This document shows positions 1-61,700 of a DNA stretch of 64,000 nt, in pieces. The first letter of the stretch is position 1; each line of letters opens with the position of its first letter. The notes under the pieces were generated by a model. That model was not told where the DNA came from. It made no database searches and worked only from the letters and a program-made list of their open reading frames with translations. The translations under genes and the position numbers were made by a program. The DNA is taken from the IMG/VR virus record IMGVR_UViG_3300028393_000021. One strand, written 5' to 3'. The DNA comes from a virus.

Positions 1-44
1 ATCGGATAGACAATCCGGTGCCCTACCCAGAGGACTACTGTGGC
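1..44 (-). tRNA. tRNA-Asp(GTC), 5' part only (3' end lies outside the window)
   Basis: Minus strand GCCACAG-TAGTCCTCTGGGTAGGGCA-CCGGA-TTGTCTA-TCCGA: D arm and anticodon arm with GTC; truncated at position 1. Confidence 0.75.
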
Positions 45-49
45 AAAAT

Positions 50-124
50 TGGCATCCTGCACGGGTATCGATCCCGTTCCTACACCTTGAAAGGGTGTTG
101 ATCTAGCCAGTAATCTAGCAGGAT
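50..124 (-). tRNA. tRNA-Glu(TTC)
   Basis: Cloverleaf; anticodon arm ACACC-CTTTCAA-GGTGT, T arm ACGGG-ATCGATA-CCCGT, encoded CCA. Confidence 0.9.
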
Positions 125-130
125 ATAATT

Positions 131-204
131 TGGTGCTCCATGACAGAATCGAACTGCCGTAACCTGATTACAAAACAGGTGTAATACCATTATACTAATA
201 GAGC
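131..204 (-). tRNA. tRNA-Thr(TGT)
   Basis: Anticodon loop TTTGTAA, T loop TTCGATT, encoded CCA. Confidence 0.9.
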
Positions 205-209
205 TAATT

Positions 210-284
210 TGGTGGACCATGGGGGAATCGAACCCCTCAAGACATGATCATTGCAAGTGATCACCGTAACCCATTACTCAGCCC
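210..284 (-). tRNA. tRNA-Ala(TGC)
   Basis: Anticodon arm GATCA-CTTGCAA-TGATC, T arm GGGG-TTCGATT-CCCC, encoded CCA. Confidence 0.88.
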
Positions 285-290
285 ATATAA

Positions 291-373
291 AAACACACTA
301 CCAGTCCCGGGGATTCGAACCCCTTTCTCTTGTAGTTTACCACGACCTTTTCAGTCAGGCAAGTAATGTGTTT
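291..373 (-). ncRNA. tRNA-like structured element (T arm present, no canonical cloverleaf or CCA)
   Basis: GGGG-TTCGAAT-CCCC T arm enclosed by an 11-bp stem AAACACATTAC/GTAGTGTGTTT, lying between two tRNAs. Confidence 0.45.
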
Positions 374-378
374 GCATA

Positions 379-454
379 TGGCTCCATCTGTTGGATTCGA
401 ACCAACCTCTTCCGGTTAACAGCCGGGGGTACTCACCGAGAATACTAAGATGGA
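379..454 (-). tRNA. tRNA-Asn(GTT)
   Basis: Acceptor TCCATCT/AGATGGA, anticodon loop CTGTTAA, T arm GTTGG-TTCGAAT-CCAAC, encoded CCA. Confidence 0.92.
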
Positions 455-465
455 ATAGAATATTT

Positions 466-552
466 TGGTGGAACCCCAAGGAATCGAACCTCTTGCCTCC
501 ACCCACCTTATTTTGGCTACGATTTTACAGACCGCAAGCGGGAAAGGGCTCC
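466..552 (-). tRNA. atypical tRNA-Tyr(GTA) lacking a D arm, with a long variable region
   Basis: Acceptor GGAGCCC/GGGTTCC+ACCA, anticodon arm GCGGT-CTGTAAA-ATCGT, T loop TTCGATT; only 10 nt between acceptor and anticodon stems. Confidence 0.65.
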
Positions 553-793
553 ATTAAACACACTCTAACAGTTTATCTTTCTGCCTCTCTGTACTATGTA
601 CATTGAACAAGTGTGTGTATTAAAGCACTCTTCATGGATGAACCCACGTGTGTCCTTGCGGATAGAGAATGCTTTAATACGTAACCATTTTCTTTCCACA
701 AGAGGAAATGCCATCCGGTACGCCGCCCGTTTGCTCCAATGTTTTAAGTGCGGAGCCAGGACCTCGTTTCCTGTATATTCACACTTTGCGATA

Positions 794-946
794 TTAACGG
801 CCTCCGCAGAGATCCTCTCGCTTTCTAAAAGCTTCATAACTTTGAGCAGCTCTTGCTAACTTGTTCTGAATAAGTTGTTTAACCTGTTCAGGAGTTAGTG
901 TGTGCTGTCGAAGCCATTCTGCTTGTTTGATCTGTTTAGTATCCAT
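794..946 (-). CDS. small hypothetical protein (50 aa, MDTKQIKQAEWLRQ...)
   Basis: ATG with AAGGA Shine-Dalgarno; below the ORF-track cutoff; translated by hand. Confidence 0.6.
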   Translation of the reverse strand: MDTKQIKQAEWLRQHTLTPEQVKQLIQNKLARAAQSYEAFRKREDLCGGR

Positions 947-958
947 GTTCCTTGCGGA

Positions 959-994
959 AAACAAAAAACCCCAGGGTTTCTAATCCTGGGGTCC
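959..994 (-). terminator. intrinsic terminator / attenuator hairpin upstream of the tRNA array
   Basis: GGA-CCCCAGG-ATTAGAAAC-CCTGGGG followed by TTTTTTGTTT. Confidence 0.85.
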
Positions 995-1017
995 TTGGAA
1001 GTTAAAATGTAAACTTG

Positions 1018-1161
1018 TTACACTTTGGTCTCCTGGGACCCCGAGCTAATCTCCGGTGTGCGATCATAACTTGACAGACTATTAATCGCTAACCAGCTGG
1101 CGGACATGCATCCAACCTGTTTGGCTATCGTATTAAAATGTTGTCTTTGTTGCGATTGCAT
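1018..1161 (-). CDS. putative attenuation leader peptide (47 aa, MQSQQRQHFNTIAKQVGCMSASWLAINSLSSYDRTPEISSGSQETKV)
   Basis: ATG to TAA between a sigma70 promoter and the terminator; its last codons contain GGGGTCC, complementary to the terminator 5' arm GGACCCC. Confidence 0.65.
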   Translation of the reverse strand: MQSQQRQHFNTIAKQVGCMSASWLAINSLSSYDRTPEISSGSQETKV

Positions 1162-1220
1162 TTTGTTTTCTCTTTAAACCTTTTGTTTACATCAACAGCA
1201 CCATTGCTGCCTATGTGTTA

Positions 1221-1249
1221 ATTATACATTTATTTAGTCTCGTTGTCAA
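1221..1249 (-). promoter_or_regulatory. sigma70-type promoter of the leader/tRNA operon
   Basis: TTGACA-17 nt-TATAAT with extended -10 TG; spacer also contains TAAATA. Confidence 0.85.
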
Positions 1250-1324
1250 CCACTATTTGTAATTTTGACAAAATATTTTAATTTATTTTATCTAGTTGCC
1301 TACGGTACTTGCTAACTTAACTCT

Positions 1325-1353
1325 ATTGTACATTTATTTGTCTATCTTGTCAA
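1325..1353 (-). promoter_or_regulatory. second tandem sigma70-type promoter
   Basis: TTGACA-17 nt-TACAAT; spacer ends AAATAAATG like the downstream promoter. Confidence 0.75.
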
Positions 1354-1436
1354 ATACTTTTGGTAATTTATTTTGTTGTATTTTTACAACATTTTGTTGC
1401 CTGTTGTTCTTACTAACAAATCTCCATTGTATATTG

Positions 1437-2228
1437 TCATAACCTCAATGCTTTACGAATCTTAGTAGCACTAATATCAGTTACTTTTTTATCAAATGTT
1501 TCCTCACCTACGGTGTAGCCAACTCCTCGACCCCAACCAATATGTACGATGTTAGGAACAACTTGTATTTCGTATTGTCCTTGATACAACGGATCTAGAT
1601 CACGACGAATAAAACTTTTAACTTTTGCCACTTCAAATGGATTGTTTCCTTGCCATCCTTGTACATCACGTACTTGAATAATAACTTGTCCAGTCTTGGC
1701 CAATAGCCTTTCAAACAATGCACGATGTCCTTCATGCCATGGTTGCCAACGCCCTAGCATTTGTACTGTGGGTTTTTTCCAATCAAATACAGGACGCAGT
1801 CTATTGTCCAATATGTGTGCTGCAACAAACTCTCCCCACTTAACAGCATTTTGTTCTGTTATTCTGAAGTCGTATACCTCAGGTTCTACAAACATGGCAT
1901 TAGTATCAGCATAACGGCTTTCACGGATAGTGTCTACCCATACTGTCCAATCTGCTTTGAAGTTGTTACGCATTTCGACTAATGGTGCAACAAAGTCGCA
2001 GATCACATAGTCCATATCAATCATGGCATCTGCTAGATCACGCATACGTTTACTTTGACGAATACGGCCAGTTTCACTAAAATCCCAATCGTCATATTTT
2101 TTACGGACATCATCGGCATTTAGCCAACCTACACGTTTCCTATCTGCTTGTAGATGATCCACGATGTGTTGTGCTAGATAAGTCTTGCCTGCTCCAGGCA
2201 GGCCCATTATTAATATTTTTTTTGTCAT
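1437..2228 (-). CDS. bifunctional adenylylsulfate-kinase-like P-loop kinase + HxGH nucleotidyltransferase
   Basis: GLPGAGKT Walker A, LNADDVR and ICDFVAP (CysC-like); C-terminal GRWQPWHEGH. Confidence 0.75.
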   Translation of the reverse strand: MTKKILIMGLPGAGKTYLAQHIVDHLQADRKRVGWLNADDVRKKYDDWDFSETGRIRQSKRMRDLADAMIDMDYVICDFVAPLVEMRNNFKADWTVWVDTIRESRYADTNAMFVEPEVYDFRITEQNAVKWGEFVAAHILDNRLRPVFDWKKPTVQMLGRWQPWHEGHRALFERLLAKTGQVIIQVRDVQGWQGNNPFEVAKVKSFIRRDLDPLYQGQYEIQVVPNIVHIGWGRGVGYTVGEETFDKKVTDISATKIRKALRL

Positions 2229-2848
2229 GGGTAGAAATGTTTAAGTAATTTGTAAGTGAGAGAATAGTTATCTGGGCATGGAGTTTTAATTGAATTAATT
2301 TTTTCACTAAACACTAAATCTTCATAATGTAAATCTAAATCAAATGTAGCAGGATACTCATCTAATATTTTATTGAAATATTGTATTGTTCTGTTTATTT
2401 TATGAATTTGCATTATATTGATATTTGGAACATTTTTTTCATAGGGGGTATCTTGATTATAACCATAGGTTTTTCTTTGATGTGCAATATACAGACTTGT
2501 GGCTTGTGCAATAACATCTCTTCTTCGAATTCTTATTAAACAACAATTATGTTCACTAATAACATCTTTAACAATATCCGAGTATACCATACGTCTTTTT
2601 ACAGTATTAGATTTTATCAGATCGCCTGCGTGAAGTTTTAATACATATGGATCTTTATTATTAATAGAAGTAATTAATGATGCAAGACTATCTGGTTGAC
2701 CCGGTTCTATAAAAAGTTTCAAGCTAGGATATGAGGTTAATAATTGCTGAAAAATATCATATGTAAGAGCAGTTGAACCTGTACGTAGACTAGATAAAAT
2801 AATAACCGGTACTTTATTTATATTGTATAACAATTTATTTAACTCCAA
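2225..2848 (-). CDS. sulfotransferase-like protein (Stf0/P-loop sulfotransferase family)
   Basis: LSSLRTGST 5'-PSB-like loop, RIRRRDVIAQATS 3'-PB-like motif, HYEDL. Confidence 0.6.
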   Translation of the reverse strand: MELNKLLYNINKVPVIILSSLRTGSTALTYDIFQQLLTSYPSLKLFIEPGQPDSLASLITSINNKDPYVLKLHAGDLIKSNTVKRRMVYSDIVKDVISEHNCCLIRIRRRDVIAQATSLYIAHQRKTYGYNQDTPYEKNVPNINIMQIHKINRTIQYFNKILDEYPATFDLDLHYEDLVFSEKINSIKTPCPDNYSLTYKLLKHFYP

Positions 2849-3377
2849 TGATCATGTATCTGGTAAATTCCCAAGTAGGATATTTAAATTCTTTAAATCC
2901 TTTAAAGTAATATGTAGTTAACGGATACTGATTTACAAAACTATCTAATGTTGTACTATGTATTATATGATCATCATGTGGCATATTATTGCCTTGTAAT
3001 GCAACATGTGTACCATAGGGTATGTTATTCCACCAATCCATACTTTCAAAATGTTCTGTACTTGTATTAATTATAACATCAACATCTATTGGAACAACAG
3101 TATTACAATCCATTGTAACTGCTTTGAATTTCCAATCTTGCCATTTCCAATTTTCATTGATCATATCCGCCATAGCTTCACAGGTTGGATCAATATCTAT
3201 GCTACGAATTTCTTTTATTTGAATATTATTACGACTATATAACAAAAATCCAGTTAGGCCATACCAACCGCCATAGATCCATATTGTGTCTACTGAGTTA
3301 ACTATTTTTTCTAACTCTTCACACAACCAAATTTTACTACCGATCTGTCCACTAGAGAAAGCATCTTTGTTTAACAT
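2835..3377 (-). CDS. class I SAM-dependent methyltransferase-like protein
   Basis: IYGGWYG Gly loop, SIDIDP acidic motif, INTSTEH. Confidence 0.65.
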   Translation of the reverse strand: MLNKDAFSSGQIGSKIWLCEELEKIVNSVDTIWIYGGWYGLTGFLLYSRNNIQIKEIRSIDIDPTCEAMADMINENWKWQDWKFKAVTMDCNTVVPIDVDVIINTSTEHFESMDWWNNIPYGTHVALQGNNMPHDDHIIHSTTLDSFVNQYPLTTYYFKGFKEFKYPTWEFTRYMIIGVK

Positions 3378-12370: not shown

Positions 12371-14302
12371 TTAAGCAGCCTTTTTAGCTTGCTCAGTTGT
12401 TTCTTTAAAATCTACATCAACTATATTATCATCTGCGGGTTTCTCAGACTCGCCAGATGCGGTTTTTTCTTCCTCTTCTGCTTTAAGTTTTGCAGCAGTA
12501 ATAGAACCCATGCATTCGTAAAGAGTTGAAATACTTTTTTGTATTGCTTCAACATCGTCCCCCTTGACAGCATCGTTGATACCTTTGATTGCATCTTCAA
12601 CCTTGGTCTTTTCTTCAGGTGGAACTTTATCGCCGTATTTTTCAATATCATCTTTAAATCCGTGAACAGTAGATTCGGCAGTATTTCGAGCATCAACTAA
12701 CGCACGTTGCGTTTTATCTGCTTCTGCATTGAGTTCAGCATCTTTGATCATATCTTGGATTTCCGATTCACTCAAACCACTGTTAGATTTAATGGTGATT
12801 TTGTTTTCTTTACCAGTATTTTTATCTTTGGCACTTACGTGCATGATACCATTTGCGTCAATATCAAATGTAATTTCAATTTGAGGAATTCCCCGACGTG
12901 CAGGTGGAATTCCTTCTAGATTAAATTCACCTAACAATTTGTTATGTTGTACAAACTCGCGCTCGCCTTGGAATGCTTTGATAGTAACAGCTGGCTGATT
13001 GTCGTCAGCAGTTGAAAACGTTTGTGAGGCCTTAGTAGGGATAGTTGTATTCTTTTGAATCAACTTGGCCATTACGCCACCCTGTGTTTCAATACCAAGA
13101 CTCAACGGAGTAACGTCTAGCAATAAAACGTCATTACGTCCACCACCTAGAACATCACCTTGGATAGCTGCACCTGCGGCCACTGCTTCGTCTGGGTTAA
13201 CATCTTTACGTGGTGCTTTGCCAAACAATTTTTCAACTGTTTCAACAACTTTGGGCATACGTGTCATACCACCAACGAGGATAACTTCATCGATATCACT
13301 GGCAGTAACGCCTGCATCTGCCATAGCAGTTTTACAAGGTGCAACACTACGCTGAATTAGTTCTTCAACAAGTTGTTCTAATTTAGCACGGGTGATCTTA
13401 ACATTCATATGTTTCGGACCGCTTGCATCTGCTGTGATATAAGGCAAGTTAACATCTGTTTGTGCAGAACTTGAAAGTTCAATCTTGGCTTTTTCAGCAG
13501 CTTCTTTCAAACGCTGAAGCGCCAGCATGTCCTTCTTAAGATCAACGCCCGAGTCTTTCTTAAATTCATTAACCAAGAAATCCATAATACGTTGGTCAAA
13601 GTCTTCACCACCCAAGAACGTATCGCCGTTAGTACTCAGTACTTCAATTTGTTTATCGCCGTCGATGTGTGCAATTTCAATAATACTAACATCAAATGTA
13701 CCACCACCCAAGTCGTAAACTGCAATCTTACGATCTCTTTTATCAGTTTTATCAACGCCATACGCAAGAGCTGCCGCAGTTGGTTCGTTGATAATACGTA
13801 GAACTTCAAGTCCTGCAATTAAACCAGCGTCTTTAGTTGCCTGTCTTTGACTGTCATTAAAGTATGCAGGAACTGTGATAACTGCTTGTGTAACTTCGTG
13901 TCCTAGATAATCCTCTGCTGTCTTTTTCATTTTACGTAGCACTTCTGCACTAATTTGTGGAGGTGCCAGTTTTTCATTATTCACATCTATCCAAGCATCG
14001 CCGTTTTCTGCTTCTACAATTTTGTAGGGCATTAGGTCAATGTCTTTTTGCACAGCTTCTTCTTTAAATTTACGTCCAATTAGACGTTTAGCTGCATAGA
14101 TTGTATTTTTTGGATTTGTAACTGCTTGGCGTTTTGCGCTAGCACCTACAAGGATCTCATCATTGGCATATGCAACAATACTTGGGGTAGTGCGATTGCC
14201 TTCTGAATTTTCTATAATTTTTGTGACGCCATTTTCAATAACTGCCACACAGGAATTTGTAGTTCCAAGGTCGATACCTATAACATGATTTCTTTTGCTC
14301 AT
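12371..14302 (-). CDS. dnaK: molecular chaperone DnaK
   Basis: [32 protein letters not shown]; full length 643 aa. Confidence 0.97.
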
Positions 14303-21732: not shown

Positions 21733-21962
21733 TACATTTTTTTAGGTAATTGCTGATCGCGTAGCTTTTTATTCCAGCGAGCCTTGGCAGCTCCCTTTTT
21801 ACGCTTACGCTCAGTAGTGGGTTTTTCATAAAACATTTTGGCTCGTACAGTTTCCAGTACTCCTGAATCTTCTACTTTTTGTTTGAACTTTCTAAGTGCA
21901 ACTGCTAGGGGTAAATCTCCTACAAGTATTTTATTACCTAGTAATTTATTTTGTTTGCTCAT
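21729..21962 (-). CDS. rpsU: ribosomal protein bS21
   Basis: [35 protein letters not shown]. Confidence 0.88.
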
Positions 21963-23178
21963 TTTTATTTTTATCAAAAATCATCGTGGCTGATTTGCCA
22001 TCAATCGTATCTTTAGTTATCCGAATTGTATTCAAACCGCGTTCTACTAAATCAACAGCATCAAATTGATAGGGCAATAGGACTTTTTCAATTATGTTTT
22101 TTAATCCGCGAGCATTTGTTTCTAGTTCTTTAGCTTTGGCTGCAATACTGAGCATTGAGTCATGGTCAAATTCTAATGTAATATTATCCAAATTAAACAT
22201 ATATTCATATTGTTTAATTGGGCTATTCTTTGTTTTGGTAAGAATTTCTACTAACTGTTCTTCGGTAAGTTCATCGACGTTGGTAATGAGTCCAAACCTT
22301 CCAACGAATTCTGGGATAAGACCAAATTTAATAAGATCTTTAGTAATTACTTCTTGAAATACATTTTTATCATCTTCTGCATTACTAAAGTTTGCATGAA
22401 ATCCCACTGAACGTTTACCCATTCGTTGCTTAATAATTTTATCTAAACCAACAAACGCACCTCCGCAAATAAACAATATACTTCGAGTATCAATTTCTTG
22501 CATATCGCTACCAGGATGCTTTCTTTTACTATTTGAAGGTATTCGCATTACACAACCTTCGATCATTTTTAACAATGCTTGTTGTACACCCTCACCACTT
22601 ACGTCTCTGGTAATACTGGCACTTTCGCCTTTACGTGCAATTTTGTCGATTTCATCAATGTAAACAATACCTCTACTAGCTTTTTCAATATCGCCATCGG
22701 CTTCGCTGATTAAACGAGTAAGAATACTTTCTACATCATCACCCACATATCCTGCTTCTGTAATTCCTGTTGCATCACATATAGCAAATGGGAGGTCTAG
22801 ATATTGTGCAATTTTCCTAGCCATCATTGTTTTACCACAACCAGTTGGACCAAGTAATAACACATTGGTTTTTTCTAATTCGATAGAAGTACTAGGGTTG
22901 TTTATTCTTTTAAAATGTTGACTAACTGCTACACTTAAAGAAATTTTAGCCTGGTCTTGTCCTATAATGTATTCGTCTAAATAGTCTTTGATCAACACTG
23001 GATTTAGTAATTTACTTGTATCGGCGGGAACTTTTACTTTTTCGTCTACAAGTATATCAACACAGAGATCAACACAATCATTACAAATTGCTGCAAGGCC
23101 ACCGACAATTAACTTCTCTACATCTTCTTTACTTTTTCCGCAAAAATCACAACTGTGAGTTTTTTCCGATTTTGCCAT
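21946..23178 (-). CDS. clpX: ATP-dependent Clp protease ATPase ClpX
   Basis: C4 zinc domain CDFC...[36 protein letters not shown]. Confidence 0.95.
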
Positions 23179-53938: not shown

Positions 53939-54624
53939 ATTTTATTTTTAAAGTTGTTTAACATGGCAACATATAATCTACATTCTCTTTCGAGATATAT
54001 AAATTCTCGATTTGGTATTGTGTTTGCTGTTACATTATTAGGTGTTGAAAATTTAAGATTTTTAATATAGTAATTTTGATTAAATTTGGCCAGCATGGTG
54101 TCCCATAACCAACTATCACCATGATAGATATCTAACCCTGCAGGAATATTGATCCAATCTTGCTTGTTAATAAACATTAAACAGCCGATATCAAATATGT
54201 TAGTTGATCCGTTGTAGTGAACTATATCAACAGGTTCCGAAGATCCATTAGATAATTGTGAATGAGATTGTGAAAATACTACAAATTTTCCTGTATCCAA
54301 TTTATTCTTTAAAAAATCAAATATTGATAGATCAAAATCAATATCATCATTCATGACACACACATTTGAATATTCACTCACGCCTGCTCCAAAATTCCAA
54401 GCAGGATTTACAAATATATTTAATTTAAAATTATGTAATTTAATTTTTGGATGATGTAATACATCAGCATTGGGTGTGGAATTCATATCATTATTAATAA
54501 TAATAATTTCTCCCACTAATTCATGCTGTACTAACTTATATAGTAAATTAATAAATGGTGCATATTTCCACATAGTGGGTACTACTATTGAAAATTTATT
54601 TTCGTACAAAGTGATAATCTCCAT
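53935..54624 (-). CDS. GT-A (GT2-like) glycosyltransferase
   Basis: SIVVPTMW, IFVNPAWN, VMNDDI; probable start MEIIT at 54624. Confidence 0.75.
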   Translation of the reverse strand: MEIITLYENKFSIVVPTMWKYAPFINLLYKLVQHELVGEIIIINNDMNSTPNADVLHHPKIKLHNFKLNIFVNPAWNFGAGVSEYSNVCVMNDDIDFDLSIFDFLKNKLDTGKFVVFSQSHSQLSNGSSEPVDIVHYNGSTNIFDIGCLMFINKQDWINIPAGLDIYHGDSWLWDTMLAKFNQNYYIKNLKFSTPNNVTANTIPNREFIYLERECRLYVAMLNNFKNKI

Positions 54625-57600
54625 CTGGTCCTTTATCGCAGAACATGCCTGTACACTCAAATCCCAGTCTACTCATGTATGCTATTACTTCATTATGTAA
54701 AGGAGCACCTTTATTATATTCTATCATCTGTAATCCTAAAATTACATGGTTAACAGTTTTTAAAGTTTCTGTGGCACCTTTGAGAATATCCAATTCAGAG
54801 CCCTGCACATCCATCTTAATTAAATCAGGTAGTGGTAATTGTCCAGCAAGAACTGCACTATCTAATGTGATTGATTTAAGTTTACGCTTGTGAGATTCAG
54901 TGTATAAAATTTTAGCTGCTGGATTTATATCAGAATTTTCTACATAATAACTATTGCCACCTGGATCAAAATCATTTTGATAAAATTCAATTTCTCTACC
55001 ATCAGTGTCACTGAGCAAACCTATGTTATATTTCATACCCGCTTCTTGATATAAAATTTCTGCAGAATCCATGGCATCAAATGCAACAACCTCAGCATTG
55101 ACCCAAACTTTCTTTGCAGCTTTGGTCCAATGTAATACACATGCACCTATATCATACACAACAATAGGGTTATAATTATATTGATCTCTAATTTTTACAA
55201 GATAGTCAGTATGTGAAGTGGGCAATGTTCCACTGTTTCCTATAAATCGCAATCTGTCTGCTACGCTATTAAACGTGGCAGAAGCTGGATCTAATAGTGC
55301 AGGTATACTATTATCAATTTGATAAGTGAAACTACCAATATGTCTGCATTGTATAGTAGTATCTACCCAGATATGGAATCCATTGTTTCTTGCCTTAGTA
55401 CAGAAATCATTATCTTCAGAGATAGTGTGTGCATGATTTATGGCAGAGTGGTATTTAAATTGTGGATATCCAACTGTTCTAAACACTTCTGCCTTGACTA
55501 ATACACATCCAAAACCGCAGCCTGCAATTTCAACTAGACCCCGTCCTTTGATCTTTTCATAAGGAATGTTTGATACGCCACCTCTATTATTATGCTCATA
55601 TAATTCTAAAACATGTATGCCAGGTCGACGTTGTATGTACATACCTGATACCACATCCTTATCATGTGCCAATAATTTTTTAAGAATATCTCTGTCAAAT
55701 GCAATGTCACTGTCAATGGATAACAAATAATCATACCCATTAACTACCCAATCAGCAATCAGGTTACGTACCTGATCAATGTTGTAACCGTAGTAATATT
55801 GAAAGTCAACTATATATCCATCGGGTACTTCTAGATCATATATAGATTTAAACGTGTCTGCTTCAATGTTTCTAGCAGTGGGTATACCGATTAAAATTCG
55901 TTTCTTTACTTGTACAGGTAATGGCGCAATGATAGGAACAGGCAATTCGTTGATTATCTCTTGCATGTCTACTCTAACCTGTTCGTAGACATGAGTTTCT
56001 CTTTCTAACACCCCACCGGTGATAGAAATATCCGAAGTAGTTGCTGCAAATTGACTATAGAACTCCATGTTTGTAATAATATAGTTTGTCTTGCCTCTCC
56101 TTAGCTGTAGATCAAATATAAAATTATCACCATAATAAATATCCAAACCATGGGGTATTGGGATCCAGCTCTTTTTATCGATGAACATTAAACAGCCAAA
56201 ACCATAAGTATGTTCACCTGTCCATGGAACAATATCGATGATTTTTGTAGTAATAGGTGGCTGGTTAAAGTCGGGCTCGCCTGGACATAACCCAAACACA
56301 CCATTATCTTCATTTAACATGTTTTGTAGTTTTTCAAATACATCAGTATCAAACACCACATCATCGTTGACAATACATAGTTTGTCATTTCTACTGGTTT
56401 CAACACCAATGTTCCATGCTGGATTAACAAATATGTTTGTGCCAAAGTCTAACATTCTAATCTTAGGATGATCTAATCCTATACTAGGTGTTTTGGTATT
56501 ATCATTGTTAATGATGATAATTTCATTTACAGATTTATGTTCACATAGCTTACCCACAAATTCTATAAATTGATCTGCTACTCTCCACATTGTGGGAACA
56601 ATTACAGAATACTTGGTAGTTTTAGTTTTGTTAATAATATCTCGGGCTGTGCGTGTTTGTTCATCACTGTTAACTTTATAATCGTTCAATGGATTTATAT
56701 CGTTGTAATTATAAACAATGTCCTGCAAACATTTAATTTTATTGGGATTAGCTGCTTCGATCAATGCATAGAACACACTACCGTCGCCTCCTGCTTTGTA
56801 CCATTCCCCTTGACTGTCTTGAAACATATTGTTATCAATACTATTAATTAGATGTTTCCTAAAGGTACGAAAATGCGTATAAGGTAAAATCCAGTTAAAG
56901 TGATGGTTACGATAATTTCCGGACTGCTTAATCTTTTCAGGATATGGTTGACTAATCAACGGAATGTTATCAACCATACTCCAGCAACTACCATAAGTAA
57001 ATTCAGTGTCAGCATCGTATACAGTATTGTAATAGGATAATACAGTATTGTCGTTAATTAAACTATCATCACCATCGAGCAACATTACAATCGCACCATC
57101 ATTTAATGTACGTATGGTGTCAATTTGATTTTTAACAGCACCTTGATTAGTTGTATTTTTAATTAATATAAATTTATCTTGTATCTCAATGGGTAACTTG
57201 CTGATTACATATTCTACAACTTCAATGGAATTATCAGTTGAGCAATCGTCAATCAGTATATGACGGTAATTATTGTAATCCTGTGTGGCCACACTGAGGA
57301 TACATTTTTCAATGTAATGAGCACAATTATAAAATGGGCTAAGAATTACAAATTCTTGTTCAACATTGGATTTATAAGTTTCAAGTTCAATCTCATTATG
57401 GAATCTACGTTTCCATATTTTATTGACTTTGTGATTAATTTTACTAGCTTCTCTATATTCATCAGCAGGGAGATAATTGCCTGTCTTTTTAAAGAAATGC
57501 TGTTTCCACTGCAATGCCACACTGTCCCATCCTGCTATATCTTTGATGATGTTGCAATAGTATTGTTTTTGTTGATGTAGATATTTGTTATGATATGCTG

Positions 57601-58681
57601 CTAGTGTTGCATTGACAAAATGTTCAACTTGTGCCGATGAATTAATAGTGGGAAATAAACCGTTGGGTACTATGGCATAGTCAATGAGATAACAGGCACC
57701 GTCTAATGCAATTTCTTCCAAAGCGCCAAATCTGCAAGTGATCACAGGAGTATTGTAGATTAAACTTTCTAATGTACTAATTCCGTAAGTTTCAGGAAAT
57801 GCTGCAGGATATATCATGAAATTAGATTCAGATAATATCTTTGCAATTTCGTACTGTGGTATAATGCCAGTAAATTCTATACCCTTGGCCTGATTATTGA
57901 CATCATCTGCTAGCTGTCGCCATTTTGTTTCTTGTTCATCAGGTGCATCACCGGAGCTAAATCTATAATAGCCTCCAATGATTTTTAATTTTGCCTGTGG
58001 CAATTGATGTTTAATCCTTGGCCAAATTTGTTCCACCAAGGGGACCATGCCCTTGCTAACAGAAGCATTATATACAAATAAATTTGGGTCTTTAGCTTGT
58101 ATATCAACTTCGAGATTATAATTCCTAGCACCGTTTCTAGTAATGAATAACTTGCGTTTTAATACTTCAAAGTTTCTTTTCTTACCATGGTCGCAATTGG
58201 CCACATAGGTTGAATGAAAGTCACTGAGTGTAAAAATGTCAGTGATACGATTTGCATTGGCCAAATCTTCAATCAATAAGTCTCCGAGGCAAAATGTATC
58301 ATGCATCCATAACACACGCATCTTGGCTTTGCTTAGAATACGATCATATAGATTCATATCCTTAAATGGCCAAGCTCTTGCATCACCTAATTTCTGATAG
58401 TCATTTGGATCTGTAAATGGTATTACAGTCCTAGAACTAATAATTATATCAAAAATATGATCTTGTGCAAGATCAGTTAATGGACGATATGTTACGTCAT
58501 CATATATGCCTGCTTTTGCGTGATCAATATTACAGTTATTGAACACGGTAACATTAAAATCTAATTCGGCTAATTCTCGAGCCATTAAAGTAACAGCACT
58601 TTCGCTGCCACCTAATCCTTGTTTATCCACAGTAGTACCATCGAATGGTATACCAATAATGTCTATTATAGCAATTTTCAT
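54596..58681 (-). CDS. 1361-aa multidomain glycosyltransferase (GT4 + three GT-A domains + FkbM methyltransferase)
   Basis: GGSE and ETYGISTLE (GT4); SPFYN...LLDGDD; VPTMW...VNDD; GIPT...IDSD; YDIGA...KMDVQGSE. Confidence 0.85.
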   Translation of the reverse strand: MKIAIIDIIGIPFDGTTVDKQGLGGSESAVTLMARELAELDFNVTVFNNCNIDHAKAGIYDDVTYRPLTDLAQDHIFDIIISSRTVIPFTDPNDYQKLGDARAWPFKDMNLYDRILSKAKMRVLWMHDTFCLGDLLIEDLANANRITDIFTLSDFHSTYVANCDHGKKRNFEVLKRKLFITRNGARNYNLEVDIQAKDPNLFVYNASVSKGMVPLVEQIWPRIKHQLPQAKLKIIGGYYRFSSGDAPDEQETKWRQLADDVNNQAKGIEFTGIIPQYEIAKILSESNFMIYPAAFPETYGISTLESLIYNTPVITCRFGALEEIALDGACYLIDYAIVPNGLFPTINSSAQVEHFVNATLAAYHNKYLHQQKQYYCNIIKDIAGWDSVALQWKQHFFKKTGNYLPADEYREASKINHKVNKIWKRRFHNEIELETYKSNVEQEFVILSPFYNCAHYIEKCILSVATQDYNNYRHILIDDCSTDNSIEVVEYVISKLPIEIQDKFILIKNTTNQGAVKNQIDTIRTLNDGAIVMLLDGDDSLINDNTVLSYYNTVYDADTEFTYGSCWSMVDNIPLISQPYPEKIKQSGNYRNHHFNWILPYTHFRTFRKHLINSIDNNMFQDSQGEWYKAGGDGSVFYALIEAANPNKIKCLQDIVYNYNDINPLNDYKVNSDEQTRTARDIINKTKTTKYSVIVPTMWRVADQFIEFVGKLCEHKSVNEIIIINNDNTKTPSIGLDHPKIRMLDFGTNIFVNPAWNIGVETSRNDKLCIVNDDVVFDTDVFEKLQNMLNEDNGVFGLCPGEPDFNQPPITTKIIDIVPWTGEHTYGFGCLMFIDKKSWIPIPHGLDIYYGDNFIFDLQLRRGKTNYIITNMEFYSQFAATTSDISITGGVLERETHVYEQVRVDMQEIINELPVPIIAPLPVQVKKRILIGIPTARNIEADTFKSIYDLEVPDGYIVDFQYYYGYNIDQVRNLIADWVVNGYDYLLSIDSDIAFDRDILKKLLAHDKDVVSGMYIQRRPGIHVLELYEHNNRGGVSNIPYEKIKGRGLVEIAGCGFGCVLVKAEVFRTVGYPQFKYHSAINHAHTISEDNDFCTKARNNGFHIWVDTTIQCRHIGSFTYQIDNSIPALLDPASATFNSVADRLRFIGNSGTLPTSHTDYLVKIRDQYNYNPIVVYDIGACVLHWTKAAKKVWVNAEVVAFDAMDSAEILYQEAGMKYNIGLLSDTDGREIEFYQNDFDPGGNSYYVENSDINPAAKILYTESHKRKLKSITLDSAVLAGQLPLPDLIKMDVQGSELDILKGATETLKTVNHVILGLQMIEYNKGAPLHNEVIAYMSRLGFECTGMFCDKGPDGDYHFVRK

Positions 58682-58688
58682 ACTATTA

Positions 58689-58716
58689 ATTATACACTAC
58701 AGGTACTGTGTGTCAA
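58689..58716 (-). promoter_or_regulatory. sigma70 promoter (leaderless start)
   Basis: TTGACA-16-TATAAT, 7 nt before ATG 58681. Confidence 0.75.
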
Positions 58717-58732
58717 TAATATTGAGTATGGT

Positions 58733-61700
58733 TTATCTTAACCGTGGATAAGTCAGTGGTGGCGGAAGTAAAGGGTCTGTATATCGAGCAATTTGTGTAA
58801 TTCTTAAATCATCAATATATCCCTTAAATGATAATGAATTATAGGATATTCCAATGTACTTAAATGGTATTGTGTAATTTGTTGTATTTGTTGTAGAACT
58901 AGTAATTGCAGAATTTATATACATAGTTAATATAGATCCAGATCTAACAACTGCTACATGATTCCATATATTAACAATCACAGTTCCTGTGGTAACAAAT
59001 GTGGTATTATCTTTCCAACCAATTTGACTGCCCACAGCATCGTTCACTCCTGTATATCCTAAATATGCAGATCCCGGAACACTGGTACTAGTAGTCCTAG
59101 AATCTAATAATGCCGGTGCGGTAGTTGAGGTACTGTACAAACTAAGTGGGTACATCCACATTTCTATTGTAAAATCCCCAGAGCCCAGTGCTGTTAAATT
59201 TGTTGCAGTGGTTGTTGAAGTCGAACCTATACCCAATCCATCACCGTCACCATCAAAGTATATACTAGTGGCATTATATTTAACAATTGAATTTGAAACT
59301 GATATATCACCTATGGAATATATATTATTTTGTGTAGTGGCATCAAATATTTTACTTTCAGTGGCATTAATTAATAAACTAGTGTTAGCAAATTTAAATT
59401 CAATAGCTCCGCTGGAATTAAACACATAAACTTTATAGCTGTTTGTGGTATAAACTCCAGTTGTACCTGTGGTCAACGGTGCAGTAGTAAGCGTATCTGT
59501 ATGCCATATAATTACTTTACCTGATCCTCCGGTGCCGCCGGTGCCGCCGCCGCCGTAGTAATCGCCGCCGCTGCCGGCTCCCCCGTTGCCAGTGTTTGTG
59601 CCGGCTGCAGGTGGACTTAAGGAGTTGGATGGTGTGCCACCTGCAGAAAATGTTGCCGAATATGTTGAACTACTAGCAACACTAACATACAGTCCGGAAC
59701 CACCAACACCGTAAGCTCCTGCACTAGATGCACCACCTGCAGAACCAGCGCCACCACCACCGCCACCGAAATAGCTGCTGCGGCCCTGGCCGGCAACGCT
59801 GTAGCTGTAACCGCCACTATTCCCTCCACTATTTCCATATCCAATTCCAGAACCATTTAGTCCCAGTGTATTTTGTGTAGATGTACCAGCCTGGGTTGCC
59901 GCCGTTTGATAACTATAGGCATTACCACCACTACCAGAACCACCAGCGAGACCTACGGTACCGGCTGCATCCGACCCACCACCACCACCACCTTTAGCTA
60001 GAATATTTGGAGGAATATTAAGTCCAACCAGTTGACTATCTTGGCCATTGGTCCGGGAACCACCGCCTGCACCCACAGTGATAGTTATTACACCCATGAT
60101 ATCAGTGGCAGTAAAGCTACCAACTGTTAGGCCGCCTGCGCCGCCGCCTGCGCCATATTCTGTGCCATAGGCCGCACTGGGAGTGTATTGGCCAGTCCCA
60201 CCACCACCGCCACCTGCTACTACTACATAATTAATTGTAAAACTTGATGATTGAGATCTAGTGTCAGGTGTTAATGGTGTAACTGGTAATGTATATGTTG
60301 TAACACCTCCAGCAGTTGTTATCCGTTCTGAAATAGCGCCTCGTAATATACGTAGATTCGATAGATACCCCTTGTAATATCCAAGATTTAGATATGTCGA
60401 TCTACCTATACTAAAATTATTAGTAATCAATTTAAAATTAGGAGATACAGCAGTATACAAACTGCTTAGAACAGTTGTAATTGTAATAGATGTAACAGTA
60501 GTACCGGCAGATGTGCCATTGATATACAAAGTTACAGTTGTATTATTTCTAACTAATGCTATATGATTCCATGCTCTAAATTTAACTTTTAAATTTTCTG
60601 CATCGGTACTTGTAAATGTAGTGGCAGTTCCTAGACTAACTGTACATCGCCCCGAAGTCTGCAATGCCAAAGACATCCCATCGTTGGTAGACGTAGTAGC
60701 TGTACCAAATGTCATAGCACCGGATATGTTATATCGACTATCGATAAAATACACAGTGGTGCTAATTGGTTCTGGATAAGACCAAAATTCTATACTAAAA
60801 CTGTTATTTTGAAAATTAACAGCATTAGGATTCACTGTTAAAAAGTCTGTGCTACCATCAAAGTAAACACTACCACCGGTCAACAGTGTGTTATATGGCC
60901 CGGGATTTATAAAGGGAGAGAATCTACGTATTGCAGGAGTACCATTTTGACTAACTGTAAAATTATAATTGCTTTTGTCAATAAGTGATCCACTTGCAGA
61001 AACCAACAAGTTAGTATTATTAACTAACGGAAACGGTGATCTAGGTAATGCAATTATACTTGATCCATTTAAAAAACGAAAATTTGACATGTAACCCTGG
61101 AAATAGTTGGTACCGTCATAGCCAATATATATAGATTGAGTATTATTATACACTGTTCCAGTGCTGGACGCGGTTACTAAATTACCGCCATTTAACATGC
61201 TGGTATAGGTTGATCCGGACCTAGATAGAGATATGTGATTCCAAGTGTTCAAATTAATCAGAGTGTTAGATATTGGTAGATAATCTGTTCCGAACGTAAT
61301 AGTTCCACTACCGGTGAATATATATATTCTAAATCCGCCTGTCACAGTGTATGTTACTGGGCCAATTGTTGTTGCTGGTGCATAGGTATCAGAATAACGA
61401 AGAATGACTACTCCCGACCCGCCTCTACTACCCGCAGTCCCTGACTCACCGCCACCACCGCCACCACCTCCTCCAGTATTTGCGGTGGCGTTTGAGGCAG
61501 CCCTGTAATTGTAAGCTGCGCCATAGCCACCGCCATAACTAAGGCCGAAGCCGGTGTAACTGCTGTTGCCGCCGCCACCACCTCCTCCTCGGCCAACAGA
61601 TGTCCCTGTAATAGTCGAATATAATCCTATGCCACCTTCTCCTCCTCCTCCGACCCCGCCAGCACCACCGCCTCCGTTGTTATAATAGCTAAAACTGCCG

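Follow-up and report, generated by a model that had tools for sequence, protein, structure and literature searches.

A candidate ribosome-mediated transcription attenuator in front of the tRNA array of giant lake phages

It is an open question why large phages carry sets of tRNA genes and how these are put to use, and the question is reportedly tied to tRNA-cleaving host defences such as PARIS. Here we analyse a 64,000-nucleotide (nt) stretch of the virus record IMGVR_UViG_3300028393_000021 (hereafter referred to as the window), in which a short leader region on the minus strand precedes a tRNA array, and ask what this leader does. The original prediction described the leader as a leader-peptide attenuator that gates the tRNAs. 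Its interpretation is supported by our comparative analysis, in which every check proposed with it that could be carried out computationally came out favourably. The locus is probably a ribosome-mediated transcription attenuator that heads a phage tRNA super-operon and ties tRNA transcription to decoding speed.

The predicted minus-strand order of promoters, leader open reading frame (ORF), terminator, small ORF and tRNAs was recovered with every named element in its place, including the two tandem sigma70 promoters, of which one is a near-perfect and the other a perfect match to consensus (Table 1). Across the phage family that carries the arrangement, which consists of giant lake phages, the minus-strand order is 2–4 tandem consensus sigma70 promoters, a 5′ hairpin, the ORF, a predicted antiterminator hairpin (P3), the terminator and the tRNA array. 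The leader peptide family comprises 92 IMG/VR loci, an invariant 18-nt leader core is found once in each of 115 IMG/VR phage contigs, the whole arrangement is kept in at least 115 related contigs, and the protein-database matches to the leader peptide amount to 482 clusters. The P3/terminator motif is unique within the window, with no match in 100 shuffles. Searches of the cultured phages in INPHARED returned no match to the region (blastn) or to the leader (tblastn), and an Rfam scan of window positions 1–3000, which include the leader, returned tRNAs only at E values up to 1. Among relatives picked by the kinase gene upstream of the leader, 2 of 80 had a leader within 4 kb; the kinase gene was rejected as a synteny anchor, and synteny was followed from the leader itself, because the kinase–leader junction is not conserved.

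Table 1. Features of the attenuator region and the adjoining genes, in window coordinates.
Feature	Position	Strand	Description
Attenuator region	959–1353	−	In the 64,000-nt window
Distal sigma70-type promoter, P1	1325–1353	−	TTGACA-17-TACAAT, 11/12 match
Proximal promoter, P2	1221–1249	−	TTGACA-17-TATAAT, 12/12 match
5′-terminal stem-loop of leader transcript	1190–1215	−	From RNA fold
Shine-Dalgarno-like GAG	1170–1172	−	In an A-rich unpaired stretch; ATG 8 nt further on
Leader ORF	1018–1161	−	47 codons; all 20 amino acids; 34 distinct codons
Mid-ORF hairpin	1093–1124	−	GGAU/GUCC closed by CCA/UGG; RNAalifold pairs with compensatory changes
D-R-T-P-E(-I) codons	1048–1065	−	Invariant in alignment; just upstream of the P3 5′ arm
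Predicted antiterminator hairpin P3	988–1042	−	Outer helix 1042–1036 with 994–988; inner helices enclose the stop codon, 1020–1018
Intrinsic terminator	958–992	−	Stem 992/991–985 with 975–969/968, 7–8 bp, G+C-rich; 9-nt loop; T6-G-T4 (968–958)
Small ORF, first gene past the terminator	794–946	−	50 codons; basic, helical; own AAGGA ribosome-binding site
Conserved structured RNA	671–786	−	About 115 nt; between attenuator and tRNAs; about 77 loci, four covarying stems
First tRNA-like gene	469–553	−	Class II shape with GUA anticodon loop and CCA end; not called by ARAGORN
Start of tRNA array	1–454	−	tRNA-Asn 379–454, tRNA-Thr 131–204, tRNA-Glu 50–124, plus uncalled tRNA-like stretches

All 63 unique relatives carry 2–4 tandem near-consensus promoters per leader, and the end of the P2-type −10 hexamer lies 48–66 nt from the ATG. 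Of 59 unique 5′ untranslated regions (UTRs), 55 form a hairpin, whose stem sequences differ, and 58 have a GGA/GAG motif at −16 to −5. The leader is covered by metatranscriptome contigs from four studies: one starts at 1209, about 5 nt past the predicted P2 start site, and bridges the terminator, and one contig of a relative ends about 11 nt past the T tract. These are assembled contigs, which give no levels, strands or true ends and whose uncovered parts do not count as evidence.

The central part of the prediction concerned two competing RNA structures. The GGGGTCC segment of the leader (1042–1036, the last base of codon 40 plus codons 41–42) is indeed complementary to GGACCCC at 994–988, and a strong terminator, with CCCCAGG at 991–985, CCTGGGG at 975–969 and a U tract, follows. 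The 3′ arm of P3 and the 5′ arm of the terminator have 4 nt in common (991–988), and the minimum-energy structure of the 96-nt region is the predicted antiterminator (z = −3.1). By anchored arm extraction, the arm pairs of the P3 outer helix in 64 unique sequences fall into five types, AGGGUCC/GGACCCU (37), GGGGUCC/GGACCCC (22), a G·U intermediate (3), AGGGCUU/AAGCCCU (1) and AGGGUUC/GAACCCU (1), and none of the 64 has mismatched arms. The proposed covariation was therefore found, with G–C, A–U and G·U exchanges and double changes in two relatives (L111 and L137). These and the other P3 counts come from the anchored extraction and from per-sequence folds, as MAFFT alignments are unreliable for P3 covariation: one sequence class has its 5′ arm shifted by one column, and the low figure of 75% paired that they give is an artefact of this shift.

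P3, which is about 58 nt long in the family, forms with its outer helix in 50 of 50 unique sequences (z of about −6) and has the stop codon among its paired bases in 45 of them. A search free of motif assumptions found a terminator in 75 of 76 unique leaders, and in all 75 terminator-bearing leaders 2–9 nt of the terminator 5′ arm pair with ORF bases; a consensus terminator scan, which allows loops of up to 8 nt, missed the terminator in the window because its loop is 9 nt long. The classical attenuator geometry that had been proposed is thus present throughout, with the end of the ORF always inside the antiterminator hairpin. From these pairings, P3 and the terminator are predicted to be mutually exclusive. 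The P3 state is favoured over the terminator by a median of 3.4 kcal/mol, and when the part that a ribosome would cover is masked in folding, the terminator forms. The outer helix has a pairing probability of at least 0.94 in 63 of 63 nascent leaders, indicating that it meets no upstream competitor; accordingly, we found no trp-type anti-antiterminator (segment 1:2) that would compete for the P3 5′ arm in these 63 nascent folds. A small hairpin in the full-length fold of the window was considered as an anti-antiterminator and rejected, being neither conserved nor ever used in nascent folds. As the nascent-transcript folds always form P3, read-through would be the default, and a ribosome at the stop codon would favour termination. 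The stop codon lies 22–35 nt upstream of the terminator stem, such that a terminating ribosome could disrupt P3 without covering the terminator. This distance is consistent with measurements in Escherichia coli, in which a stop codon 28 bp upstream gave about 90% termination and one 5 bp upstream less than 10% (PMC4824070).

The leader ORF, predicted as 47 codons and present as such at 1161–1018, behaves in its relatives as a reading frame, and we infer that it is translated. Its length ranges from 42 to 52 codons and its ATG is invariant (63/63 leaders). In the leader alignment, all 17 gap runs between the ATG and the Pro-Glu-Ile (PEI) codons are multiples of 3; in the 5′ UTR this holds for 5 of 25 gap runs, and downstream of the stop codon for 3 of 21. 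Conserved leader residues show synonymous variation. The P3 5′ arm is read in different frames in the two main sequence classes, as G-S in one and as R-V-R in the other, and compensating frameshifts hold the stop codon within P3, in its apical part in both classes. The conservation of the ORF that was to be checked on homologous leaders is thus borne out, and these patterns argue that selection acts on the ORF as a reading frame. Switches between the TCA and AGT codon families of Ser were rejected as evidence, because some alignment rows contain an extra Ser codon. Within the ORF, the stem of the mid-ORF hairpin is kept although the amino acids encoded there vary, and it is possibly an RNA polymerase pause hairpin.

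The leader always stands at the head of a tRNA array, as predicted. Downstream sequence of 520 nt or more is available for 77 loci; in every one of them a tRNA array on the same strand starts 260–1030 nt past the stop codon, and almost no tRNAs lie upstream of the leader. The array in the window runs beyond the window edge; in a near-identical relative (L176) it goes on for 15 kb and includes at least 34 tRNAs, and same-strand arrays in the family hold 27–46 tRNA genes. In two genomes that are nearly complete (345 and 356 kb), one 12–15-kb array contains nearly all of the tRNAs, and the array covers tRNAs for nearly all amino acids. Three parts of the tRNA-like gene at 469–553, namely its anticodon loop, T arm and 3′ end, align with the ARAGORN-called tRNA-Tyr of a relative (L044). 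Gating by the leader would nevertheless be partial: a near-consensus promoter lies between the terminator and the first tRNA in 12 of 65 relatives, and array-internal promoters occur in relatives 10–50 nt upstream of tRNAs. No block-specific leaders were found behind array-internal promoters in three relatives. The predicted succession of a small ORF and then the tRNAs also stands, except that it had missed the conserved structured RNA that lies between them. This RNA has no match in Rfam over 640–960 at E values up to 10, and an RNA contig covers 686–945 at a depth of 28.8. The small ORF is kept as a protein in many relatives and absent from others, and it matches no family in Pfam or PHROG. 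We found no promoter in the window belonging to the small ORF and the adjoining structured RNA themselves.

Together, these features suggest the following mechanism. Host RNA polymerase would start at the tandem consensus promoters, and the nascent leader RNA would by default fold into P3, whose 3′ arm holds four bases of the terminator 5′ arm, so that the terminator cannot form. With P3 intact, transcription would continue into the small ORF, the structured RNA and the tRNA genes. A fast ribosome that is inside P3 or at the buried stop codon when the polymerase reaches the T tract would melt P3; the terminator would then form and transcription would stop. Slow decoding of any one codon, caused by a mismatch between host tRNAs and phage codons, by depletion or cleavage of tRNAs or by lost charging, would delay the ribosome and increase read-through. 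The outcome would be a demand-driven, self-limiting supply of phage tRNAs. Since P3 is the default and the two structures are close in energy, termination would need tight coupling between ribosome and polymerase.

What quantity would such a leader sense? It had been noted that the leader lacks a run of one amino acid and samples most of them. This proved to be an understatement, as none of the 20 amino acids is missing from nearly all homologues (60 of 63 unique leaders), and runs of regulatory codons for one or a few amino acids are absent from the leaders. The full set is present in 2.8% of 48-residue control windows and in 3 of 46 of the neighbouring downstream small ORFs, and 2000 shuffles within alignment columns left 26.8 ± 3.0 leaders with all 20 and never more than 36. 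More divergent leaders in an independent set hold all 20 in 17 of 24 cases, and database representatives, a second independent set, in 93 of 120, the rest in both sets having 18–19. Cys is present as a single copy in 53 of the 63 leaders, spread over 10 different columns; the tree implies at least 23 changes of its position and a single loss. Relocation is also seen for Tyr and His, in their case without loss. The all-20 composition thus appears, from these patterns of substitution, to be maintained through relocation of the rare residues. The codons follow suit: leaders use 36.7 distinct codons per 48, compared with 28.1 ± 3.1 in controls (99th percentile, 35), with 33–41 per leader, and 48 of 63 leaders cover 24 of 24 decoding boxes, including codons that are rare in phage genes, compared with 0.19% of controls. 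A match between leader codons and phage anticodons was also considered and rejected, as it does not discriminate: the arrays decode almost everything.

On balance we lean, with limited confidence, towards a 20-valent decoding sensor. Its frame would have evolved to contain every amino acid and about three quarters of the decoding boxes, so that any shortage of charged tRNA opens the complete viral tRNA set and restored decoding re-closes the gate. The trigger could be host tRNAs that fit the phage codons poorly or the action of host tRNA-cleaving defence nucleases; extra tRNA would not help under plain amino-acid starvation. With a strict ribosome footprint of +12 nt, the sole Glu codon lies on the border of the region in which a stall leaves P3 intact. 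A plain hungry-codon model also does not explain the invariant Trp, the D-R-T-P-E motif and the near-invariant synonymous blocks.

These invariant residues raise the alternative that the RNA switch is the same and the sensor is nascent-peptide arrest, in which the invariant Trp and D-R-T-P-E would act in the exit tunnel and pause or arrest the ribosome just before or in P3. The response would then be to a single cue, for instance a metabolite, a factor or a phage protein, and the presence of all 20 amino acids would be secondary. M1, W and DRTPE(I) are the only invariant residues in leaders whose remaining residues all vary, and DRTPE recurs in essentially all of the 120 database representatives. 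Its distance to P3 is fixed: it ends 4–6 nt before the P3 5′ arm. It lies about 10–14 residues from the stop codon, a spacing also seen for the key residues of arrest peptides such as TnaC, and the tail past it is constrained as RNA only. To our knowledge, DRTPE resembles no known arrest motif, and the spacing from Trp to the motif ranges from 5 to 11 residues. Arrest also leaves unexplained the wandering single Cys, Tyr and His residues and the excess of distinct codons, and it could act alongside codon sensing without replacing it. We consider it unlikely to be the sensor.

A second alternative dispenses with attenuation altogether. The ORF would encode a small trans-acting protein, active for instance in tRNA biology or host takeover, and would be followed by an ordinary, somewhat leaky terminator. 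P3 would serve the stability or processing of the 3′ end, and the downstream genes would be expressed by constitutive read-through. Hundreds of conserved variants with an invariant motif and the RNA contig that bridges the terminator are compatible with this, and trans functions of attenuated leader RNAs and peptides have been described for rnTrpL and peTrpL (PMC6614838, PMC7968998). A folded or binding peptide would, however, fix its residues, whereas most leader positions vary, the rare residues move yet persist and the tail is read in different frames. Moreover, covariation preserves exactly the pairing that overlaps the terminator, and the window shows no promoter belonging to the small ORF and the RNA next to it. 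We therefore regard this reading as improbable. Still less credible, and very improbable in our view, is an RNA-only or factor-bound riboregulator that binds a tRNA, protein or metabolite in the manner of a T-box or riboswitch, with the open frame incidental: two ORF blocks that are near-invariant even at synonymous sites and the covarying mid-ORF and 5′ hairpins would fit it, but no Rfam family, T-box included, matches the leader in the scan of window positions 1–3000, and an incidental frame would lack the uniformly in-frame gaps, the invariant ATG with its ribosome-binding motif and the frameshift compensation that keeps the stop codon in P3.

A comparison of the candidate attenuator with known systems places it close to the enterobacterial leaders trpL, hisL and pheL and the multivalent thrL and ilvL. 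They share a leader ORF (translated in the enterobacterial systems and presumably so in the phage), an intrinsic terminator before the regulated genes and an antiterminator that shares bases with the terminator. A ribosome at the stop codon leads to termination and a ribosome held upstream to read-through in trpL-type attenuators, and the same would apply to the phage leader. Unlike these, the phage leader has no codon run for one to three amino acids and has instead about one codon for each of the 20; its ORF has 42–52 codons, and its regulated genes are viral tRNAs and not biosynthetic enzymes. Because it lacks an upstream segment 1, an untranslated phage leader should read through, rather than super-attenuate as in trp. 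The nearest analogue for what the phage switch would respond to, namely general translation stress, is PA5471.1–armZ of Pseudomonas aeruginosa, in which complete translation of the leader allows the terminator to form, and the downstream gene is induced when ribosomes stall because of antibiotics or of a defect in tRNA maturation, namely the lack of the CCA-adding enzyme (PMC13041342). The gene under control there is a bacterial efflux-pump regulator, and the effect maps to particular codons (3Q4F), whereas the phage output is the tRNA supply itself, which would close a feedback loop, and the leader samples all amino acids.

The phage leader resembles T-boxes in that tRNA status would be coupled to terminator read-through by a choice between antiterminator and terminator. 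T-boxes, however, bind one uncharged tRNA directly, without translation, and control aminoacyl-tRNA synthetase and amino-acid genes, whereas the phage leader frame is under apparent selection; the T-box covariance model gave no match in the window (1–3000 at E values up to 1; 640–960 at E values up to 10). As in TnaC, SecM and MifM, a conserved peptide motif lies near the C-terminal third of the ORF, which in the phage would regulate the genes after it in cis. In contrast to those peptides, the phage leader shows no sequence similarity to them and has a variable Trp spacing, and its output would be intrinsic termination by an RNA switch, not Rho access or the unmasking of a ribosome-binding site.

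We found no paper in which tRNA genes, whether of phages or of cells, are described as controlled by attenuation. Known attenuators sense one to three amino acids, and a leader built to sense all twenty would be a new design within a textbook mechanism, with the unusual signature of a conserved composition at drifting positions. If this is correct, lack of any one amino acid would raise read-through, and loss of the single Cys codon would abolish the Cys response alone; the leader might also be used as a compact reporter of how fast ribosomes decode overall. If the tRNA operon has a translation-sensing gate, the phage tRNA supply would be regulated by demand, and a 20-valent sensor would make the gate a homeostat of viral tRNAs with an inbuilt defence against tRNA-targeting immunity.

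Every element of the original prediction, namely the promoters, 47-codon leader ORF, GGGGTCC/GGACCCC complementarity, terminator, small ORF and tRNAs, was recovered as described, which confirms the observation, and the further analysis supports its interpretation as an attenuator. The terminator hairpin escaped the consensus scan solely on account of its 9-nt loop. The minimum-energy fold of the local 96-nt RNA is a long hairpin (P3, the antiterminator; z = −3.1), in which the predicted heptamer pairing forms the outer helix and the leader stop codon lies within the inner helix. The P3/terminator motif occurs once in the window.

Features of the leader locus and other genes in the window
Feature	Position	Strand	Remarks
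Sigma70-type consensus promoter	1353-1325	minus	
Sigma70-type consensus promoter (P2)	1249-1221	minus	
Leader ORF, 47 codons	1161-1018	minus	
Heptamer GGGGTCC	1042-1036	minus	complement of GGACCCC, 994-988
Terminator	991-985 and 975-969	minus	CCCCAGG with CCTGGGG, then T6-G-T4
Small ORF, 50 codons	946-794	minus	3′ of terminator, 5′ of tRNA genes
Structured RNA, ~115 nt	671-786	minus	four covarying stems; about 77 related loci
Listed 90-codon ORF	837-565	minus	overlaps structured RNA
tRNA-like stretches	205-378 and 469-553	minus	T arms and CCA ends; uncalled by ARAGORN and Rfam
APS-kinase-like domain fused to cytidylyltransferase-like domain	1437-2228	minus	
ORF	2225-2848	minus	weak sulfotransferase-like match
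ORF	2835-3377	minus	faint MMACHC-like match
Low-complexity protein, 214 residues	3576-4220	minus	Ala/Val/Glu/Asp-rich; no family match
Phage DnaK (Hsp70)	12371-14302	minus	56-69% identity to DnaK of listed phage records and bacterial contigs
ClpX/AAA-like ORF	21946-23178		
Two very large ORFs	54596-63931	minus	1361 and 1732 residues

A leader-peptide search of IMG/VR yielded 92 loci, an invariant 18-nt core was found in 115 contigs at one copy each, and a profile search returned 482 protein clusters, none with a name. Matching DNA came from freshwater metagenomes of many studies; the related contigs, up to 350–520 kb long, belong to uncultured freshwater phages, and neither the region nor the leader matched cultured-phage records. 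The neighbouring genes (an APS-kinase-like/nucleotidyltransferase protein, ribonucleotide reductase and DnaK) are those of a large phage. Downstream sequence was long enough to judge in 77 loci; every one of them has a tRNA array on the leader's strand, starting 260–1030 nt past the leader stop, and almost no tRNAs lie 5′ of the leader. The arrays of three long records span 12–15 kb, with 27–34 ARAGORN tRNAs and up to 46 covariance-model candidates, and contain nearly all tRNAs of the genome. Upstream, two to four tandem near-consensus promoters occur in 63 of 63 unique regions, a hairpin stands at the 5′ UTR start in 55 of 59, and a GGA/GAG motif precedes the invariant ATG in 58 of 59 5′ UTRs. 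In the window, the matches of the three adjacent minus-strand genes at 1437–3377 suggest a putative sulfation module.

Judged by selection, the leader ORF is a real reading frame, and its predicted conservation is borne out. The alignment has 17 gap runs between the ATG and the conserved PEI codons just 5′ of P3, each with a length divisible by three; in the 5′ UTR this holds for 5 of 25 runs and past the stop for 3 of 21. Synonymous variation occurs at the conserved Ser3, Gly18, Leu34 (CTA/CTG/TTA), Arg39 and Pro41. The strongest point in favour of a real frame is the comparison of the two main sequence classes, which are separated by indels of −2 and −1 that compensate each other. Translation of the P3 5′ arm therefore gives Gly-Ser in one class and Arg-Val-Arg in the other, yet each frame reaches its stop within the apical portion of P3; other variants use a neighbouring TAA. 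The tail is thus constrained as RNA, and the frame is constrained to enter P3.

The expected covariation of the GGGGTCC/GGACCCC pairing was found when the outer-helix arms were taken by anchored extraction from 64 unique sequences. Five arm-pair types were present, AGGGUCC/GGACCCU (37), GGGGUCC/GGACCCC (22), a G·U intermediate (3), AGGGCUU/AAGCCCU (1, with three double changes) and AGGGUUC/GAACCCU (1), and none of the 64 sequences had mismatched arms. Pair counts on a MAFFT alignment of the leader loci understate this covariation, as MAFFT displaces one class by a single column. A base common to P3 and the terminator forms the pair that alternates between G-C and A-U; in the terminator, the same C-to-U change is accommodated as a G·U pair. 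P3 folds in 50 of 50 unique sequences (~20 bp in 58 nt, z ~ −6), with the stop codon paired in 45. In nascent-transcript folds from the start site to the terminator 5′ arm, the outer helix had pair probabilities of 0.94–1.00 in 63 of 63 leaders, with no upstream competitor for P3. A motif-free search found the terminator in 75 of 76 leaders, with 2–9 nt of its 5′ arm always paired with ORF bases.

The calculated P3 state is favoured over the terminator state by a median of 3.4 kcal/mol, and masking the bases under a stop-codon ribosome makes the terminator form. The terminator stem lies 22–35 nt 3′ of the stop codon; in Escherichia coli, a stop 28 bp upstream gives ~90% termination and one 5 bp upstream gives <10% (PMC4824070). 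The phage spacing leaves the terminator clear of a terminating ribosome. In the proposed two-state switch, no ribosome or a late ribosome would give read-through, and a ribosome in P3 would give termination. Under this logic, a start-codon knockout would be expected to raise read-through, unlike in trp.

The leader was noted to sample most amino acids, and it does so to the full: 60 of 63 unique leaders (42–52 residues) contain all 20, and the remaining three contain 19. All 20 occurred in 2.8% of 48-residue windows of the same phage's proteins, and in 3 of 46 copies of the adjacent downstream small ORF, which served as a control of like length, context and sampling. Shuffling residues within columns left 26.8 ± 3.0 all-20 leaders (maximum 36 in 2000 shuffles). 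The composition is not simply inherited. A single Cys is present in 53 of 63 leaders, spread over ten columns; where the Tyr ahead of the conserved DRTPE is substituted, a Tyr is found ahead of Trp, and His relocates likewise. On a tree built from the same region, Cys changed position no fewer than 23 times and was lost once, and Tyr and His changed 12 and 14 times with no loss of either. Per 48 codons, the leaders draw on 36.7 different ones, and controls on 28.1 ± 3.1 (99th percentile, 35). Of 24 decoding boxes (one for each of the 20 amino acids, a second each for Ser, Arg and Leu, and AUA), 48 of 63 leaders leave none uncovered; among controls the share is 0.19%. Codons rare in phage genes are kept, among them ACG, GCG and CGC, which make up 5%, 6% and 10% of the codons for their respective amino acids. 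In independent sets, all 20 amino acids occur in 17 of 24 leaders that are far more divergent, and in 93 of the 120 representatives taken from the protein database, the others having 18–19. A-site stall positions that leave P3 intact include 19–20 of the amino acids, the Glu of PEI being borderline.

The main rival, or complement, to codon sensing is a programmed pause just 5′ of P3, which could account for the only residues invariant across all leaders, M1, one Trp and D-R-T-P-E, and for two blocks nearly invariant even at synonymous sites. These features suggest an added function of the peptide or the RNA.

Behind the terminator, the order is a small basic ORF (most relatives), the structured RNA (almost always) and the tRNAs. 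In 46 unique relatives the ORF is 48–58 residues long; its protein sequence is conserved in many relatives, others lack the ORF, and no Pfam or PHROG family matched it. The structured RNA has invariant loops AACGAGG and CACUUAAAACA and no Rfam match, and the overlapping 90-codon ORF is probably spurious, at least in its 5′ half. The tRNA-like stretches may be unusual or degenerate tRNAs; the one at 469–553 carries the anticodon loop GUA and shows a partial alignment to a relative's tRNA-Tyr. In the window, the stretch from the terminator to the tRNAs is free of promoter-like sites; 12 of 65 relatives have one there. In three relatives with long arrays (L176, L177 and L178), near-consensus sigma70 promoters lacking leaders lie 10–50 nt 5′ of individual tRNAs, and terminator-like hairpins are almost absent for several kilobases 3′ of the attenuator. 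Given these internal and intervening promoters, the attenuator would govern tandem-promoter flux into the array rather than all tRNA transcription.

Four studies contributed metatranscriptome contigs that cover the leader; being contigs, they report presence and bridging, not levels. One 500-nt RNA contig runs from 1209 to 710 across the terminator, beginning ~5 nt past the transcription start predicted for P2, and a relative's contig ends ~11 nt past the T tract. An abundant 260-nt contig (depth 28.8) spans exactly 945–686 (minus), with a sequencing adapter at 945, which falls in the start ATG (946–944) of the 50-codon ORF; this suggests a discrete processed RNA spanning the interval from that ATG to where the structured RNA ends.

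The phage locus shares the architecture of leader-peptide attenuation, but lacks both the codon run and segment 1 of trp-type attenuators. Its closest counterparts in behaviour are leaders that respond to general translation stress, for example PA5471.1-armZ, in which the terminator forms on full translation and a tRNA-maturation defect causes read-through (PMC13041342). A full-text literature search found no report of tRNA-gene attenuation in phages or cells. We consider a ribosome-mediated attenuator the probable reading, and lean slightly towards its operation as a full tRNA homeostat. The novelty is that of a variant on a known attenuation mechanism, a 20-valent leader holding all the amino acids, which is distinctive and testable.
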